42,512 nucleotides of DNA, taken from NCBI GenBank assembly GCA_003567955.1, contig PWYF01000231.1, positions 1 through 42,512 of the forward strand. Reading direction: 5' to 3'. This DNA comes from Thiotrichales bacterium (GTDB lineage Bacteria; Pseudomonadota; Gammaproteobacteria; UBA5335; SLRW01). Shown in pieces: positions 18,676-30,311 of the stretch (its first letter is position 1; each line of letters begins with the position of its first letter). The position numbers and the translations under genes are program-made. A model generated the notes under the pieces. That model had not been told where the DNA came from and searched no databases. It saw only the letters and a list, made by a program, of their open reading frames with translations.

Positions 18676-20355
18676 TTGGCATTCAGGCCCTGCCTTGTTG
18701 TGCCCTGCTACAACCACAGCCGCCAGTTGCGCGATACCCTCGCCGCACTGGCGGCAACGGGCCTGCCATGCCTGCTGGTCGATGATGGCAGCGACAGCGA
18801 CAATGCCCGCGCCCTTGAAGCGCTGGCCGATGAACACGACTGGCTGGAGCTGGCCCGGCTGCAACGCAACCGTGGCAAGGGCGTAGCGGTGATACACGGC
18901 ATGCGCCTGGCCGCCAGCCGGGGCTACACTCACGCCCTGCAAATTGATGCCGACGGCCAGCATGATCCGGCCGACATCCCCGCCCTGCTTGAAGCCGCCC
19001 GCGCCGAACCCGAAGCCCTGATCAGCGGCCGCCCGCGCTATGGCGACGACATCCCGCGCGCGCGCCTGTACGGGCGCTACCTCACTCACGCCATGGTCTG
19101 GCTGCAAACCCTGTCGTTCTCGATCAAAGACTCCATGTGCGGTTTTCGTGTCTATCCGCTGGCGCCGACGCTGGCGCTGCTGGAGCGCAGCCGGGTCGGC
19201 CGGCGCATGGATTTCGACACCGAGATCATGGTGCGGCTTTACTGGCAGGGCACCCCGGTGCGCTTTGTAGATACCCGTGTGGTGTATCCGCCGGGCGGGG
19301 TTTCGCACTTCGCCGTACTCGCTGACAACCTGCGCATCACCGCCATGCATACCCGTCTGGTGCTGGGCATGTTGTGGCGGCTGCCGCGGTTGCTCAGAGG
19401 CCGCCACGACGTACAACACTGGTCCCATCAGCCCGAACGCGGCAGCTGGTGGGCCCTGTGGCTGGTCTTCCAGATTTACCGCCTGCTCGGCAGCCGGGTC
19501 ATCAAGCTGCTGCTGTATCCGATGATCGGCTATTTTTTTCTCACCAACCGGGAAGCACGCCAGACCTCGCGTGATTTCCTGCAACGGGTGCATGAGCAGG
19601 GCGGGGCACTGCCCCGGGCGCCGGATAACCGTCTGGTCTACCGCCACCTGTACAGTTTCGGCGACGCTATCGTGGACCGCCTGGCCTGCTGGCAGGGGCG
19701 ACTGCGCCACGAACATATGCGTTTCCACAACCAGCGTCTGTTGCTTGACCAGCGCGACAGTGGTCAGGGCGCGGTGATTCTCACCTCCCATCTGGGCAAC
19801 ATGGAAATGACCCGCGGGCTGATGACCGACATCGAGTTCATCAAGCTCAACGCGCTGGTCTACACCCGCAACGCCGCGCATATCAATGACATTATCCGCC
19901 GCAACAACCCGCGCGCCGGCAGTGACATCATTGATATCGCCCATTTCGGCCCCCAGACCGCACTGGTGCTGGATGAAAAAATCCGCCGCGCCGAGTTCAT
20001 TGCCATCGCCGCGGATCGCACCCCGCCCGGTCAACAATCCCGGCTGATGCCGGCGCGCTTTCTGGGCGAGGAGGCCCTGTTTCCGGCCGGGCCCTTTATT
20101 GTCGCCTCGCTGTTGCATTGCCCGGTGTATTTCATGAGCTGCATCAAGCATGACGACGGCATTTACGATATTGAAGTCAAACCCTTCGCCGAGCGTATTA
20201 ATCTGTCACGTGCCCGGCGGGAAGCGGACCTGGCCGGCTGGATCCAGCAATACGCCGATGAACTGCAGCAGCTGGCCTTGCGCGCCCCCCTGCAATGGTT
20301 CAACTTTTATGACTTCTGGGCCGGAACCGGCCACGAGGAGGCACCGGAGCCATGA
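18676..20355 (+). CDS. family 2 glycosyltransferase fused to LpxL/HtrB-like lipid acyltransferase domain
   Basis: The N-terminal half has VVPCYNH, VDDGSDSDN and QIDADGQHD (GT2 DxD). The C-terminal half has SHLGNMEM (HX4E, as in lipid A late acyltransferases). The start codon (TTG at 18676) is uncertain. Confidence 0.7.
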   Translation: MAFRPCLVVPCYNHSRQLRDTLAALAATGLPCLLVDDGSDSDNARALEALADEHDWLELARLQRNRGKGVAVIHGMRLAASRGYTHALQIDADGQHDPADIPALLEAARAEPEALISGRPRYGDDIPRARLYGRYLTHAMVWLQTLSFSIKDSMCGFRVYPLAPTLALLERSRVGRRMDFDTEIMVRLYWQGTPVRFVDTRVVYPPGGVSHFAVLADNLRITAMHTRLVLGMLWRLPRLLRGRHDVQHWSHQPERGSWWALWLVFQIYRLLGSRVIKLLLYPMIGYFFLTNREARQTSRDFLQRVHEQGGALPRAPDNRLVYRHLYSFGDAIVDRLACWQGRLRHEHMRFHNQRLLLDQRDSGQGAVILTSHLGNMEMTRGLMTDIEFIKLNALVYTRNAAHINDIIRRNNPRAGSDIIDIAHFGPQTALVLDEKIRRAEFIAIAADRTPPGQQSRLMPARFLGEEALFPAGPFIVASLLHCPVYFMSCIKHDDGIYDIEVKPFAERINLSRARREADLAGWIQQYADELQQLALRAPLQWFNFYDFWAGTGHEEAPEP

Positions 20356-21542
20356 GTGCCACAGCCTGTTATCTCAATGCCCTGGGCATGATCAACGCCA
20401 TGGGCGATGACAATGCCGAAATCCTCGCCAGCCTGCTGGCGGGCAAGGCGCCCGGCATGCGCGCGTCGGATGGCTGGATACCCGGCCGCAGCGTGCATAC
20501 CGGCGCCGTGGATGCCGAACTGCCAGCCTGGCCGCAACACCTGGCCCCCCAGACCTCACGCAACAATCGCCTGCTGGCCGCCGCCTGCACCCGGATCCAC
20601 GATGAGATCGAAGCCGCCCGCAACCGCTACGGCGCAGCGCGTATTGGCGTGGTGCTGGGCTCCAGCACCTCCGGCATTGCCGAGGGTGAGGCCGCCATTG
20701 CCGCGCATGAGCACGGCGAAGCGCTTCCCGCCAGCTTTGATTACCGCCAGCAGGAAATGGCCAGCCCCGCGCTGGCGCTGGCCGCACTGATGGAACTGGG
20801 CGGGCCGGCCTGGACCATCTCCACCGCCTGTTCCTCCAGTGCCCGCGCCTTCATGGAGGCCCGTCATCTGCTGGAAATGGAGCTGTGTGATGCCGTGCTG
20901 GTGGGCGGCAGCGATTCCCTGTGTCGGCTCACGCTGAACGGCTTTGCCGCGCTTGATGCCATCGCAACAGGCCCCACCCGGCCCTTTTGCGCCGGTCGTG
21001 ACGGCATCAATATTGGCGAGGGCGCCGCGGTATTTCTGATGACCCGCGAACCGGGCCCCGTGCGCCTGGCCGGGGCCGGCGATGCCAGTGATGCGCATCA
21101 CATCTCCGCGCCACAGCCGGAGGGCGAGGGCGCCGAAGCCGCCATGCGCATGGCGCTGGCTGATGCCGGGCTGGATGCCGCAGAGATTGACTACATCAAC
21201 CTGCACGGCACCGGCACGCCACTGAATGACGCCATGGAAAGCGCGGCAGTCAGCCGCGTCTTCGGCACCGGCACGCCCTGCAGCTCCACCAAGACGCTCA
21301 CCGGTCACACACTGGGCCCGGCCGGCGCCATCGAGGCCGGCCTGTGCTGGCTGCTGCTGTCGGCACAAAACCGTGATCACATCCTGCCGGCCCATATTTT
21401 CAATGGCGAACGCGATCCGGAACTCGCGCCCATCGGCTTGCTGGAGCATCCCGCAACCCTGCCCACGGACCGCACGCGCTACTGTCTGAGTAACTCCTTT
21501 GCCTTTGGTGGTAACAACTGTACCTTGATTCTGGCTGGCTGA
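20352..21542 (+). CDS. beta-ketoacyl-ACP synthase (second KS)
   Basis: TISTACSSSARA (Cys), LHGTGTPLND and LTGHTLGPAGAIEA. ATGA overlap with the upstream gene. Confidence 0.9.
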   Translation: MSATACYLNALGMINAMGDDNAEILASLLAGKAPGMRASDGWIPGRSVHTGAVDAELPAWPQHLAPQTSRNNRLLAAACTRIHDEIEAARNRYGAARIGVVLGSSTSGIAEGEAAIAAHEHGEALPASFDYRQQEMASPALALAALMELGGPAWTISTACSSSARAFMEARHLLEMELCDAVLVGGSDSLCRLTLNGFAALDAIATGPTRPFCAGRDGINIGEGAAVFLMTREPGPVRLAGAGDASDAHHISAPQPEGEGAEAAMRMALADAGLDAAEIDYINLHGTGTPLNDAMESAAVSRVFGTGTPCSSTKTLTGHTLGPAGAIEAGLCWLLLSAQNRDHILPAHIFNGERDPELAPIGLLEHPATLPTDRTRYCLSNSFAFGGNNCTLILAG

Positions 21543-21557
21543 CGCCAGCCAGAATCC

Positions 21558-21624
21558 GTGGTTACGTGGTTACGTGGTTACGTGGTTACGTGGTTACGTG
21601 GTTACGTGGTTACGTGGTTACGTG
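21558..21624. repeat. perfect tandem octanucleotide repeat (GTGGTTAC) x 8 plus GTG
   Basis: Counted directly. Eight uninterrupted units span 21558-21621, followed by a partial gtg. The repeat lies between the last KS stop (21542) and the selO start (21702). Confidence 0.95.
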
Positions 21625-21701
21625 AACAGCATTCCCTTGGTGTGAACGGGGTGGCATGCGAATGGTCTGTATCTGTGCCACATCCGTTTTAGCGGTGGAA
21701 A

Positions 21702-23195
21702 ATGAATCTGGAACAGCTTCCCTTTGAGCATAGCTACGCCGGTCTGCCGGCGCATTTCCATGCGCGGGTGGCGCCCACACCGGTCAGCAAGCCGCGGCTG
21801 GTGCAGCTCAATCGCCCGCTGGCGCACTACCTGGGGCTGGACCCGGCGCTGCTTGAAAGCGAGGCCGGTGTGGCCATGCTGGCCGGGAACCGTTTGCCGG
21901 AGAGCGCGCTGCCGCTGGCCATGGCCTACGCCGGGCATCAGTTTGGCCATTTCGTGCCGCAACTCGGTGATGGCCGGGCAGTGCTGCTGGGCGAACTGCT
22001 GGCCCGCGACGGCATCCGCCATGACATCCAGATCAAGGGCGCCGGACGCACGCCCTTCTCTCGCGGCGGCGACGGCCGCGCCGCCCTGCGGCCCATGGTG
22101 CGTGAATATCTGGCCAGCGAGGCGATGGCCGCGCTGGGGGTACCGACCCAGCGGGCCCTGGCCCTGCTGGAAACCGGCGAGGAAGTCTGGCGCGAGGAGG
22201 CCGAGCCGGGCGGTTTGCTGATCCGGGTGGCCCGCAGCCATATTCGCGTGGGCACCTTTGAGTATTTTTTCCGTAACGGTGATCACGAGGCCGTACGCAT
22301 TCTTGCGGATTACGTCATCGACCGGCATTACCCTGATGTGCGCGAGGCCGCCAACCCTTACCTCGCCCTGCTGAAGGGGATCAGCGAACGTACTGCCGAT
22401 CTCATCGCCGACTGGCTGGCGGTGGGTTTTATCCACGGCGTCATGAATACCGATAATCTGTCCGTCACCGGTGAGACCATCGACTACGGCCCCTTCGGCT
22501 TTATGGATGAATTCGATCCGGGGCAGGTCTACAGCTCCATCGACCGTGGCGGTCGCTACGCTTACAACCGCCAACCCGCCATCGCCCACTGGAATCTGAC
22601 GCGCCTGGCCGAAACCCTGCTGCCGCTGCTGGATCCCGACGAGAAAAAGGCGGTTGCCACGGCGGAGCAAAGCCTTGATAGCTTCGCACCCCGTTTTGAA
22701 GCTGCCTGGCAGGCGGCGCTGCGGCGCAAACTGGGCCTGACCGGCGGCCAGGCGGATGATGAAGCCCTGGTTACAGAATTGCTCGGCTGCATGTCCGAGC
22801 AGCGCGCCGACTACACCCTGGTGTTCCGGGCCCTGTCCTGGCTGCCCGATGACCCGTCCAGCGATGACGGCGCGGCCGATGAAACCCTGCGCGCCCTGTT
22901 TGCCAATACCCACCGCCTGGATGCCTGGCTGACACGCTGGCGCGCGCGGCTGGCGCAGCAGGCCACCCCCGAAAGCGAACGCCAGCAGGCCATGCAGGCC
23001 ACCAACCCGGCCTATATCCTGCGCAACCACCTCGCCGAACGCGCCGTGGACCAGGCCGCAGAAGGCGATTACAGCACTTTCAACGACCTGCTCACCGTCC
23101 TCGGCGACCCCTTTAGCGAACACCCCGGCTACGAGCACTACGCCCGCCCGCCGAAACCGGATGAGCGGGTGGTTCAAACGTTCTGTGGAACTTAA
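21702..23195 (+). CDS. selO: protein adenylyltransferase SelO (YdiU family)
   Basis: YAGHQFGHFVPQLGDGRA, KGAGRTPFSRGGDGRA, HGVMNTDNLSVTGETIDYGPFGFMD. 497 aa. Confidence 0.95.
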   Translation: MNLEQLPFEHSYAGLPAHFHARVAPTPVSKPRLVQLNRPLAHYLGLDPALLESEAGVAMLAGNRLPESALPLAMAYAGHQFGHFVPQLGDGRAVLLGELLARDGIRHDIQIKGAGRTPFSRGGDGRAALRPMVREYLASEAMAALGVPTQRALALLETGEEVWREEAEPGGLLIRVARSHIRVGTFEYFFRNGDHEAVRILADYVIDRHYPDVREAANPYLALLKGISERTADLIADWLAVGFIHGVMNTDNLSVTGETIDYGPFGFMDEFDPGQVYSSIDRGGRYAYNRQPAIAHWNLTRLAETLLPLLDPDEKKAVATAEQSLDSFAPRFEAAWQAALRRKLGLTGGQADDEALVTELLGCMSEQRADYTLVFRALSWLPDDPSSDDGAADETLRALFANTHRLDAWLTRWRARLAQQATPESERQQAMQATNPAYILRNHLAERAVDQAAEGDYSTFNDLLTVLGDPFSEHPGYEHYARPPKPDERVVQTFCGT

Positions 23196-23658
23196 CCCGG
23201 CTTCGCCGGGAGTTGTAAGTCTCAGGTCTAAGGTTGTAAGACGCCGGGCGCCTGATGGGGTTGCGGGCCTGGTCGGGATGCGTGTGGGGTGTATTTGGTG
23301 TGGGTTGTTTGTTTCGCGCAAAGCTCGCCAAGATCGCAAAGAAAAATCAAAAGCTAAACATGAAGGATGGAAGGGCTTGAAGAGTCAGGGAGTATGAGTT
23401 GGCTTTTGGTGTCGTCGTTCCCGCGAAGGCGGCGACCCAGGGAGGCTTCGGGGAGTTTCTGGATTCCCGCCTGCGCGGGAATGACGGAGAGCGCCCAATA
23501 CAGGCCACCCTCAGCTAACTGAGCCGCCAGACTATCCGGGCATCCGCCCCCGAAACATCAACCACCCCCAACAAATCCCCCTTCATGAGCTTCACGCGCT
23601 TCATGGTTCAAGCTTTTTGATCTTTAACTTAGCGCTCTTGGCGAGCTTTGCGCGAAAC
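23196..23658. repeat. mosaic nested-palindrome intergenic element, copy 1
   Basis: Arms at 23311-23337 and 23632-23658 match at 26/27 positions and extend as imperfect catgaag-rich arms. Internal hairpin modules are ttcccgcgaaggcggcga (23419-23436) and attcccgcctgcgcgggaat (23463-23482). The segment 23401-23487 closely parallels 29985-30070. Confidence 0.75.
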
Positions 23659-29928: not shown

Positions 29929-30311
29929 AAGCTAACCATGAAGAAAAGAAGGGCATGAAGGATCAGGGTCAGGGAGGATCAGCTGGCTTTGGGTTTCGTC
30001 GTCCCCGCGAAGGCGGGGACCCAGGGAGCTTCGGATGATTACTGGATTCTCGCCTGCGCGGGAATGACGGGATAAAGCCACCGAATACACCGAAAGCACC
30101 GAATTCTGGATAAGTAATTATCTCGGTGTATTCGGTGATTTCGGTGGCTGCGCATTTGTGCGGAAATAATAACCCTTCATGCGCTTCTTTTCTTCATGGT
30201 TAGCTTTTTACAGCCTTAATGCGCCCCCACAGCGCTCCCGACCAGGCCCCAACCACGTCAGGCGCCCCCATCTGAACACTGAAAAATGAAAACGCCCGGG
30301 CCTTCGGCCCG
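29925..30311. repeat. mosaic nested-palindrome intergenic element, copy 3
   Basis: Terminal arms at 29925-29961 and 30173-30211 differ by one mismatch and one 1-nt indel. Internal modules are tccccgcgaaggcgggga, attctcgcctgcgcgggaat (30046-30065) and caccgaa arms at 30075-30103 and 30122-30149. The tail has ctgaacactgaaaa (30272-30285) and a hairpin. Confidence 0.85.
30275..30311 (-). terminator. probable intrinsic terminator of the betaine methyltransferase operon
   Basis: On the minus strand, cgggcc-gaa-ggcccg is followed by ggcgttttcatttttcag. It lies 8 nt downstream of the stop at 30319. Confidence 0.5.

Follow-up and report, generated by a model that had tools for sequence, protein, structure and literature searches.

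Repeats of the STRR and heptamer type have, to our knowledge, had no known function since 1990. REP, BIME and REPIN elements, by comparison, are extragenic GC-rich palindromes that lie at gene 3' ends, often as inverted doublets; work by Nunvar in 2010 and by Bertels and Rainey in 2011 is said to connect them with RAYT transposases, and we know of no REPIN that has tandem-repeat arms. The closest known counterparts of the repeat analyzed here are the heptamers of Xanthomonas and Nostoc, the cyanobacterial STRR and the intervening sequence (IVS) of the Coxiella 23S rRNA. The heptamers GGGAATC (Xanthomonas) and GGGGAYT (Nostoc) occur genome-wide, are over-represented in non-coding DNA, and form arrays of about four units that lie next to stop codons and are rare in divergent spacers (Rehm et al. 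2015, PMC4692102). G-quadruplex formation was offered as the reason for the four-unit preference, most of the repeats were found to be transcribed, and a role in phase variation was judged unlikely (PMC4692102). The STRR are lineage-specific, hairpin-capable 7-bp tandem repeats found at many intergenic sites, for instance between hupS and hupL, and a part in translational coupling or in the stability of transcripts has been proposed for them (PMC2670836). In the Coxiella burnetii IVS, a 28-bp terminal stem cut by RNase III encloses an S23p ORF, beside which tandem heptamers of the unit GACAGAT vary in number among strains (PMC4990558). Finally, the 7-nt repeat (ATCTTTC)n upstream of Haemophilus influenzae hmw1A acts via a 5'-UTR hairpin that is processed by RNase III (PMC12721329).

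The window analyzed here, a stretch of 42,512 nucleotides, comes from the draft genome of a Thiotrichales bacterium (G000; 2.32 Mb in 270 contigs, 61% GC), which is apparently a metagenome bin. The collections that we searched hold two genomes of this genus, the second being a 1.3 Mb assembly of a congener that is 80% complete (G001). In the window, as assembled in this 270-contig draft, an octamer tract of 8.5 copies occupies the spacer between the last ketoacyl synthase (KS) gene of a pigment cluster and selO, with period 8, 100% matches, no indels and a TRF score of 136 (Table 1), which agrees with the eight uninterrupted copies and partial ninth described by a first-pass annotation. TRF reports the unit in the phase CGTGGTTA; in the alternative phase, the tract reads as GTGGTTAC repeated eight times at positions 21558-21621, followed by GTG. 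It is 68 bp long, has unique flanks and is oriented in the sense of the upstream KS gene, whose product carries the ketoacyl-synt N and C domains. The first GTGGTTAC unit starts at the 16th nucleotide past the KS stop and 77 nt lie between the tract end and the selO ATG, so that both distances given by the first-pass annotation agree with the ORF coordinates. Its observation that the window contains no second array of this unit was also borne out by our search of the 42.5 kb. No inverted partner arm was found for the window tract, and neither a core module nor an ORF of the S23p family (PF05635 / TIGR02436) was found at it.

Table 1. Features of the KS-selO spacer and its flanking genes in the window.
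Feature	Coordinates	Strand	Basis
Last beta-ketoacyl synthase (KS) gene, aryl-polyene type cluster	20352..21542	+	ORF list; Pfam PF00109 and PF02801
13-bp hairpin with the KS stop in its loop (ATTCTGGCTGGC TGAC GCCAGCCAGAAT)	21527..21556	+	RNA fold
KS stop TGA	21540-21542	+	ORF list
Octamer tract	21557..21624	+	TRF
77-nt spacer before selO	21625..21701	+	Alignment with G001; RNA fold
selO (protein adenylyltransferase SelO family)	21702..23195	+	Pfam PF02696, E 3.5e-127

In the sense orientation, the RNA of the spacer is predicted to fold into three successive hairpins, comprising the KS-stop hairpin, the self-paired array and a third stem followed by UUUUA. The tract alone is predicted to form a 29-bp hairpin with G.U pairs in the sense RNA, at -27.7 kcal/mol versus -11.1 kcal/mol for the antisense RNA. 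The third stem and the ensuing TTTTA fall within the 77-nt spacer, which also contains a purine-rich stretch ahead of the selO ATG. Since the KS-stop hairpin has no U-tract, it looks like a conserved 3'-end structure and not like a terminator. Between positions 21300 and 21900, neither a sigma-70-like promoter nor a canonical terminator was predicted, and an Rfam scan of the KS-selO spacer and of four element loci returned nothing besides one miRNA match (E 0.73) that we judged to be due to chance. A DNA hairpin was rejected as a special driver of slippage, because the single-stranded DNA of the tract folds no better than shuffled sequences. Searches of metagenomes with patterns for the left and right junctions of the tract locus gave 0 matches. 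Elsewhere in the window, two intergenic segments, one downstream of selO (23401-23619) and one downstream of a later gene (29997-30072), match a 200-300 bp dispersed repeat that, according to BLAST, also adjoins octamer-array elements in G001 and on many contigs of G000.

The first-pass annotation had taken perfect tracts of this kind to be rare in bacterial chromosomes, a premise that fails for this genome. The exact trimer of GTGGTTAC is present on nine contigs, a tolerant scan for the degenerate unit GTGRTTAN identified 91 arrays with three or more units, spread over 44 contigs, and TRF detects 259 arrays of at least three copies genome-wide. The units involved are led by GTGGTTAC (96 occurrences), GTGATTAC (72), GTGATTAA (49) and GTGATTAG (44). 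Strict runs comprise 429 single units, 25 runs of two, 39 of three, 27 of four, five of five, five of six, one of seven and two of eight; the preferred array size is three to four units, with the window tract as an outlier at eight. It is also the sole run of eight identical units, followed by five copies of GTGGTTAA and four of GTGGTTAC. Across the genome, 23% of adjacent units are identical, versus 15.4 ± 2.1% after shuffling, with none of 2000 shuffles reaching the observed value. The TRF arrays are dominated by periods 7, 8 and 9 (94, 95 and 47 rows of at least three copies, respectively, versus 0-8 for the other reported periods), and other long perfect arrays in G000 include TTAGACC (8.9 copies), CGTGTTC (8.3 copies) and AGCGGGAA (7.2 copies). 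Several unrelated unit families are represented among them, such as AAAACCT, AAAACTG, AAGGGCATG and AAGACTT, and examples of arrays with periods 7-9 can be seen at C124:1169-1230, C200:1851-1908 and C83:1-58. A literature search with the octamer sequence returned primer matches only.

To place the arrays relative to genes, we used our own gene calls, based on codon usage (1992 genes, 85% coding). The 3' end of the neighboring gene faces 47 of the GTGRTTAN arrays, mostly from a distance of 2-30 nt, and a 5' end faces 24. At 12 further arrays, the neighboring gene (e.g. C57:16309-17055 or C208:2721-3602) has its stop codon within the first unit, GTGATTAA or GTGATTAG, and hence the repeat itself supplies the end of the reading frame. 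Where genes are present on both sides, 33 arrays lie in tandem spacers, 18 in convergent and three (of 54) in divergent spacers, which make up 23% of the intergenic length; paired arrays are not independent, and these spacer and gene-end counts overstate the sample size accordingly. The window tract fits the family, being located 16 nt past a stop in the sense orientation with a hairpin ahead of it, apart from its missing inner module and partner arm. These results show that the tract is a member of the dispersed GTGRTTAN family, with a position and orientation typical of it.

The family thus resembles the Xanthomonas and Nostoc heptamers in its modal size of three to four units, its scarcity in divergent spacers (3/54) and its distance of 2-30 nt from stop codons. 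It differs from them in belonging to another lineage and in its unit, which is 8 nt long, contains no G-tract (GTGGTTAC included) and cannot form a G-quadruplex. That the same rules are reproduced by a unit incapable of forming a G-quadruplex argues against the quadruplex explanation of these rules. Like the STRR, the octamer arrays are numerous, dispersed, lineage-specific, non-coding and close to stop codons; unlike them, they are built on an octamer, occur in a gammaproteobacterium and mostly form arms around REP-like or other conserved modules.

Twenty-nine inverted pairs of GTGRTTAN arrays delimit elements of 113-581 bp in G000. A long quasi-palindrome results, with the paired arrays as its outer stem and, in some elements, a bidirectional terminator-like hairpin at its center. 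Two recurrent modules accompany the arrays. Module A, which adjoins them, spans about 50 nt with the invariant blocks GTCGCGGGA, GTTGCAG, CTGA and ACGCGCCGA; a looser pattern recovers 63 copies in G000 (e.g. C23:5409-5456 and C188:51-97), 49 of them beside arrays. At C93, C154 and C106 the order is array, module A, array, and the module often lies within arrays in this manner, as if inserted. Module B is a REP-like hairpin of the form GGTGTGCGGC NNN GCCGCACA. Neither module has a match in Rfam. A reading of module A as a structured RNA was discarded, given that its consensus fold comprises only invariant CGCG pairs and displays no covariation. By eye, module A shows a GG and a GC at a ten-base spacing that partially matches sigma-54 promoters. 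The sigma-54 and DnaA-box readings of both the octamer unit and module A were set aside, their by-eye matches being partial.

Comparison of the two genomes revealed two elements in which the segment enclosed by inverted arrays has changed orientation. Between C246:11401-11590 in G000 and its counterpart on C139 of G001 (L057:2431-2588), this segment is flipped: the 102-bp core is identical at 98 of 102 positions when aligned inverted relative to its flanks, versus 64 of 102 when aligned collinearly. The core is better conserved than the adjacent coding DNA, and the arrays stay with the flanks. The segment between the arrays at C14:111-691 is likewise flipped relative to C51 of G001 (L052); no hidden S23p ORF was found in this 581-bp element. 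In terms of the features expected of MITEs, the elements have inverted arms; no target-site duplication was seen in the flanks that we read, and no clean empty site was recovered. Although module B resembles a REP hairpin, the family differs from REPINs in that we found no cognate RAYT flanked by octamers. The two RAYT-like Y1-transposase ORFs that we did identify (193 aa each, C219:1830-3630, L010) lie in an AT-rich stretch and are flanked by REP hairpins of their own, GGTGCGGTC...GACCGCACCCTAC and GTAGGGCGGGATG...CATCCCGCC; a RAYT link to the octamers was rejected, as these ORFs carry other REPs and have no octamer arrays.

At least one of the elements precedes a gene. The minus strand of C106:2-121, within C106:1-301 (L071), codes for the N-terminal 40 residues of a PF05635 / TIGR02436 / NF008912 protein of the S23p four-helix-bundle type, cut by the contig end; the remainder of the gene is missing from the G000 assembly. 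Ahead of the fragment lie, in order, GTGATTAA GTGATTAC GTGGTTAC, module A, GTGATTAC GTTGTTAA, and a leader that includes a ribosome-binding site. In sister genera (G002, G003 and G004), each of the four PF05635 genes lies between inverted arrays whose 7-8 nt unit is specific to the cassette, and one protein of G003 is 63% identical to the C106 fragment, with arms that begin with GTGATTAA. G041, an unrelated, array-rich metagenome-assembled genome, yields 14 PF05635 matches; most of the 11 inspected are bracketed by inverted arrays, and at least five have clearly inverted arms, with the units GGGATCAC, GTAATTGA, GATTTGGT, GTTTATC and TTATTAGG. PF05635 had no match in Paracidovorax citrulli, which has one isolated array. 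The solved structure closest to the cassette protein is that of XCC0516 from Xanthomonas campestris (2GSC, E 3e-19), which is also the species of the GGGAATC repeats described by Rehm et al.; the link to S23p cassettes is seen here and was not made in that study (PMC4692102). The G000 cassettes are nearly all gene-less; at least the one on C106 precedes an S23p-type gene. They resemble the Coxiella IVS in the succession of arrays and S23p gene fragment at C106 and in the 29 inverted pairs, but differ from it in lying between protein genes instead of within rRNA and in being almost always gene-less, and the window tract differs further in being a single arm with no ORF.

Among the relatives that we searched, the dense GTGRTTAN family is specific to the genus. 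Three consecutive units matched 145 times in G000, 25 times in G001, once in G003 and not at all in 38 other relatives, and a reversed-pattern control gave no matches in any genome; module A shows the same restriction to the genus. In a scan of one genome per species, three copies of GTGGTTAC appeared sporadically in unrelated taxa, including Duganella spp., Paracidovorax citrulli (eight copies), a Saprospiraceae MAG and a MAG labelled Bacteroidaceae, which indicates that the unit arises repeatedly. The last of these, G041 (CAYVTV01, L019-L043), has about 40% GC and carries GTGGTTAC arrays on at least 13 contigs, adjoining arrays of GAGTAATT, GGGATCAC and GGGACGAA. In three Duganella genomes (L022:2921, L031:130 and L035:5909), three to four copies of GTGGTTAC follow a common flank, gattacggcg...ctaatccgccc[ct]ac, and the number of units differs among the three.

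The congener provides the comparison that bears most directly on the window tract. The KS-selO junction is present in G001 and both of its flanks align, at 79% identity around the spacer, but it is 56 bp shorter and reads GATC-CGTGGTTACGTG-AACAGC, that is, one unit plus CGTG (1.5 units versus 8.5). The 77-nt spacer before selO is largely alignable. The KS-stop hairpin is also predicted in G001, where the stop is TAA instead of TGA, and three of its stem pairs differ in both partners, with two T-A to C-G replacements and one from C-G to G-C; the third predicted stem, before TTTTA, is not reproduced. Fourteen of the 22 G001 arrays lie at sites orthologous to G000 arrays. Two of these 14 pairs have the same series of units and 12 have different series, and the number of units differs in four, as at C246 (seven units versus three). 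For the solo array at C101, the G001 assembly, which is 80% complete, contains no ortholog. In G003, a genome from another genus of the same family, the neighbor of selO is a divergently oriented ABC-F ATPase gene; the adjacency of the KS gene and selO is genus-specific and young.

Taken together, these observations suggest that the window tract is probably a single-arm, gene-less array of the octamer repeat of the genus, in which one unit has recently been expanded by slippage and which has no dedicated function. Typical arrays of the family comprise three to four units, follow stop codons closely and are often paired in inverted orientation as the arms of hairpin cassettes. At this locus the starting state would have been the single unit CGTGGTTACGTG, still present in G001, which replication slippage probably amplified to 8.5 units, with CGTG, a 4-nt sequence that recurs at a distance of 8 (CGTG...CGTG), as its seed. 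The expansion appears much younger than the split between the two species: all of its units are identical, and an old eight-unit array would have diverged internally, given that series differ at 12 of 14 orthologous arrays and that local identity is 79%. We infer the direction of change, expansion here instead of contraction in G001, from the identity of the units in a comparison of two genomes. Lying in the spacer behind the KS-stop hairpin, the tract is presumably transcribed and near-neutral, its only likely effect being incidental and at the RNA level, where the sense transcript could form its 29-bp G.U hairpin in the interval separating selO from the pigment operon. Against the absence of function, the preference for three to four units suggests some constraint on arrays generally, and eight identical units, as the extreme of the family, could reflect selection instead of drift.

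SelO is a conserved intracellular enzyme and not a typical phase-variable gene product; phase-variable genes usually have a surface, restriction-modification or host-interaction role. The proposal of the first-pass annotation that the tract is a slipped-strand contingency locus holds to the extent that identical units here and a single unit in G001 bear the signature of expansion. Its other half, a singular switch of the selO promoter, lacks support in the face of some 90 sister arrays that avoid divergent spacers and of no predicted sigma-70-like promoter around the tract, and a contingency switch of selO is not supported by our data. The tract is, as in simple-sequence switches, an uninterrupted repeat, but its repeat is not specific to the locus, since 91 arrays lie behind unrelated genes. 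A contingency locus in a wider sense would be a length-tunable RNA element that belongs to the pigment-operon 3' UTR as well as to the selO 5' leader, which we consider unlikely, together with its corollary that the hairpin is cut by RNase III, or blocks read-through or exonucleases, and that unit number sets the coupling of selO to the operon. The sense RNA is predicted to form the 29-bp hairpin where the antisense RNA and the single-stranded DNA are not, we detected no promoter that would serve selO alone, the two species differ in copy number, and both the hmw1A 5'-UTR hairpin (PMC12721329) and the Coxiella IVS stem (PMC4990558) offer precedents involving RNase III. The hmw1A repeat is similar in being a perfect intergenic repeat of a 7-8 nt unit upstream of a gene, with a long RNA hairpin possible (here by prediction), but the window tract is one copy of a genome-wide family and the gene next to it encodes a conserved enzyme. 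Moreover, we estimate that about 8% of random octamers would self-pair as arrays when G.U pairs are allowed, which makes the fold weak evidence; a single unit suffices in the congener, SelO is no usual target of such control, the sister arrays sit behind unrelated genes, and for the Xanthomonas and Nostoc repeats a role in phase variation was judged unlikely (Rehm et al.).

The inverted cassettes raise the alternative that the arrays are a DNA binding or recombination array for an S23p-type protein, a recombinase or a regulator, with the solo tract as a landing pad or leftover arm. The arrays form inverted cassette arms whose core has flipped between species at C246 and C14, S23p genes sit inside such arms, and the blocks of module A are conserved in the absence of covariation, as befits recognition by a protein. 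Yet the window tract has neither partner arm nor core module, the single unit and conserved flanks in G001 leave no visible scar of cassette insertion or excision, and inversions between short inverted repeats can also arise by template switching, with no dedicated protein involved. We know of no protein that binds GTGRTTAN arrays, and regard this reading as doubtful. The first-pass annotation had further proposed that the tract modulates the selO promoter, by changing promoter spacing or operator number, or marks the edge of a horizontally acquired pigment cluster. The tract does border the cluster and precede selO, and the different neighbor of selO in G003 shows the adjacency to be young; but no -35/-10 pair was found around or across the tract, arrays of the family are rare in divergent spacers, the 77 nt ahead of selO are largely alignable with the congener, the G001 version of the KS-selO junction carries a single unit, and the unit is a dispersed repeat of the genome's own that is not duplicated at the other border of the cluster. 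These are the least supported of the functional readings, and we deem them very improbable. It is hardly credible, lastly, that the copy number is an artefact of a short-read assembler misresolving a short-period repeat. The draft consists of 270 contigs, and 22 of the 91 arrays lie within 300 nt of contig ends, which indicates that repeats of this family do disturb assembly; this tract, however, spans only 68 bp and is anchored by unique flanks within a contig of 42.5 kb, the G000 assembly contains other perfect arrays about as long, and the unit itself is present at the orthologous site of the independent genome G001.

A bolder combination of these elements can be envisaged, in which a hitherto undescribed class of cassettes, S23p-containing or gene-less, would use GTGRTTAN arrays as working arms for spread and core inversion, and in which the solo tract is actively expanding, its length tuning the coupling of the operon to selO via an RNase III-sensitive hairpin as in hmw1A. 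We regard this as speculative and quite unlikely. On the reading that we favor, a recent slippage expansion within a family of cassette arms, the tract itself is a by-product, and annotating it as a phase-variation switch of selO would mislead. What the family contributes lies elsewhere: it ties short tandem repeats to cassettes with the S23p gene known from rRNA intervening sequences, and this genus, which offers about 90 arrays, a congener to compare with and core inversions that can be seen, is one in which the function of such repeats could be tested in practice.
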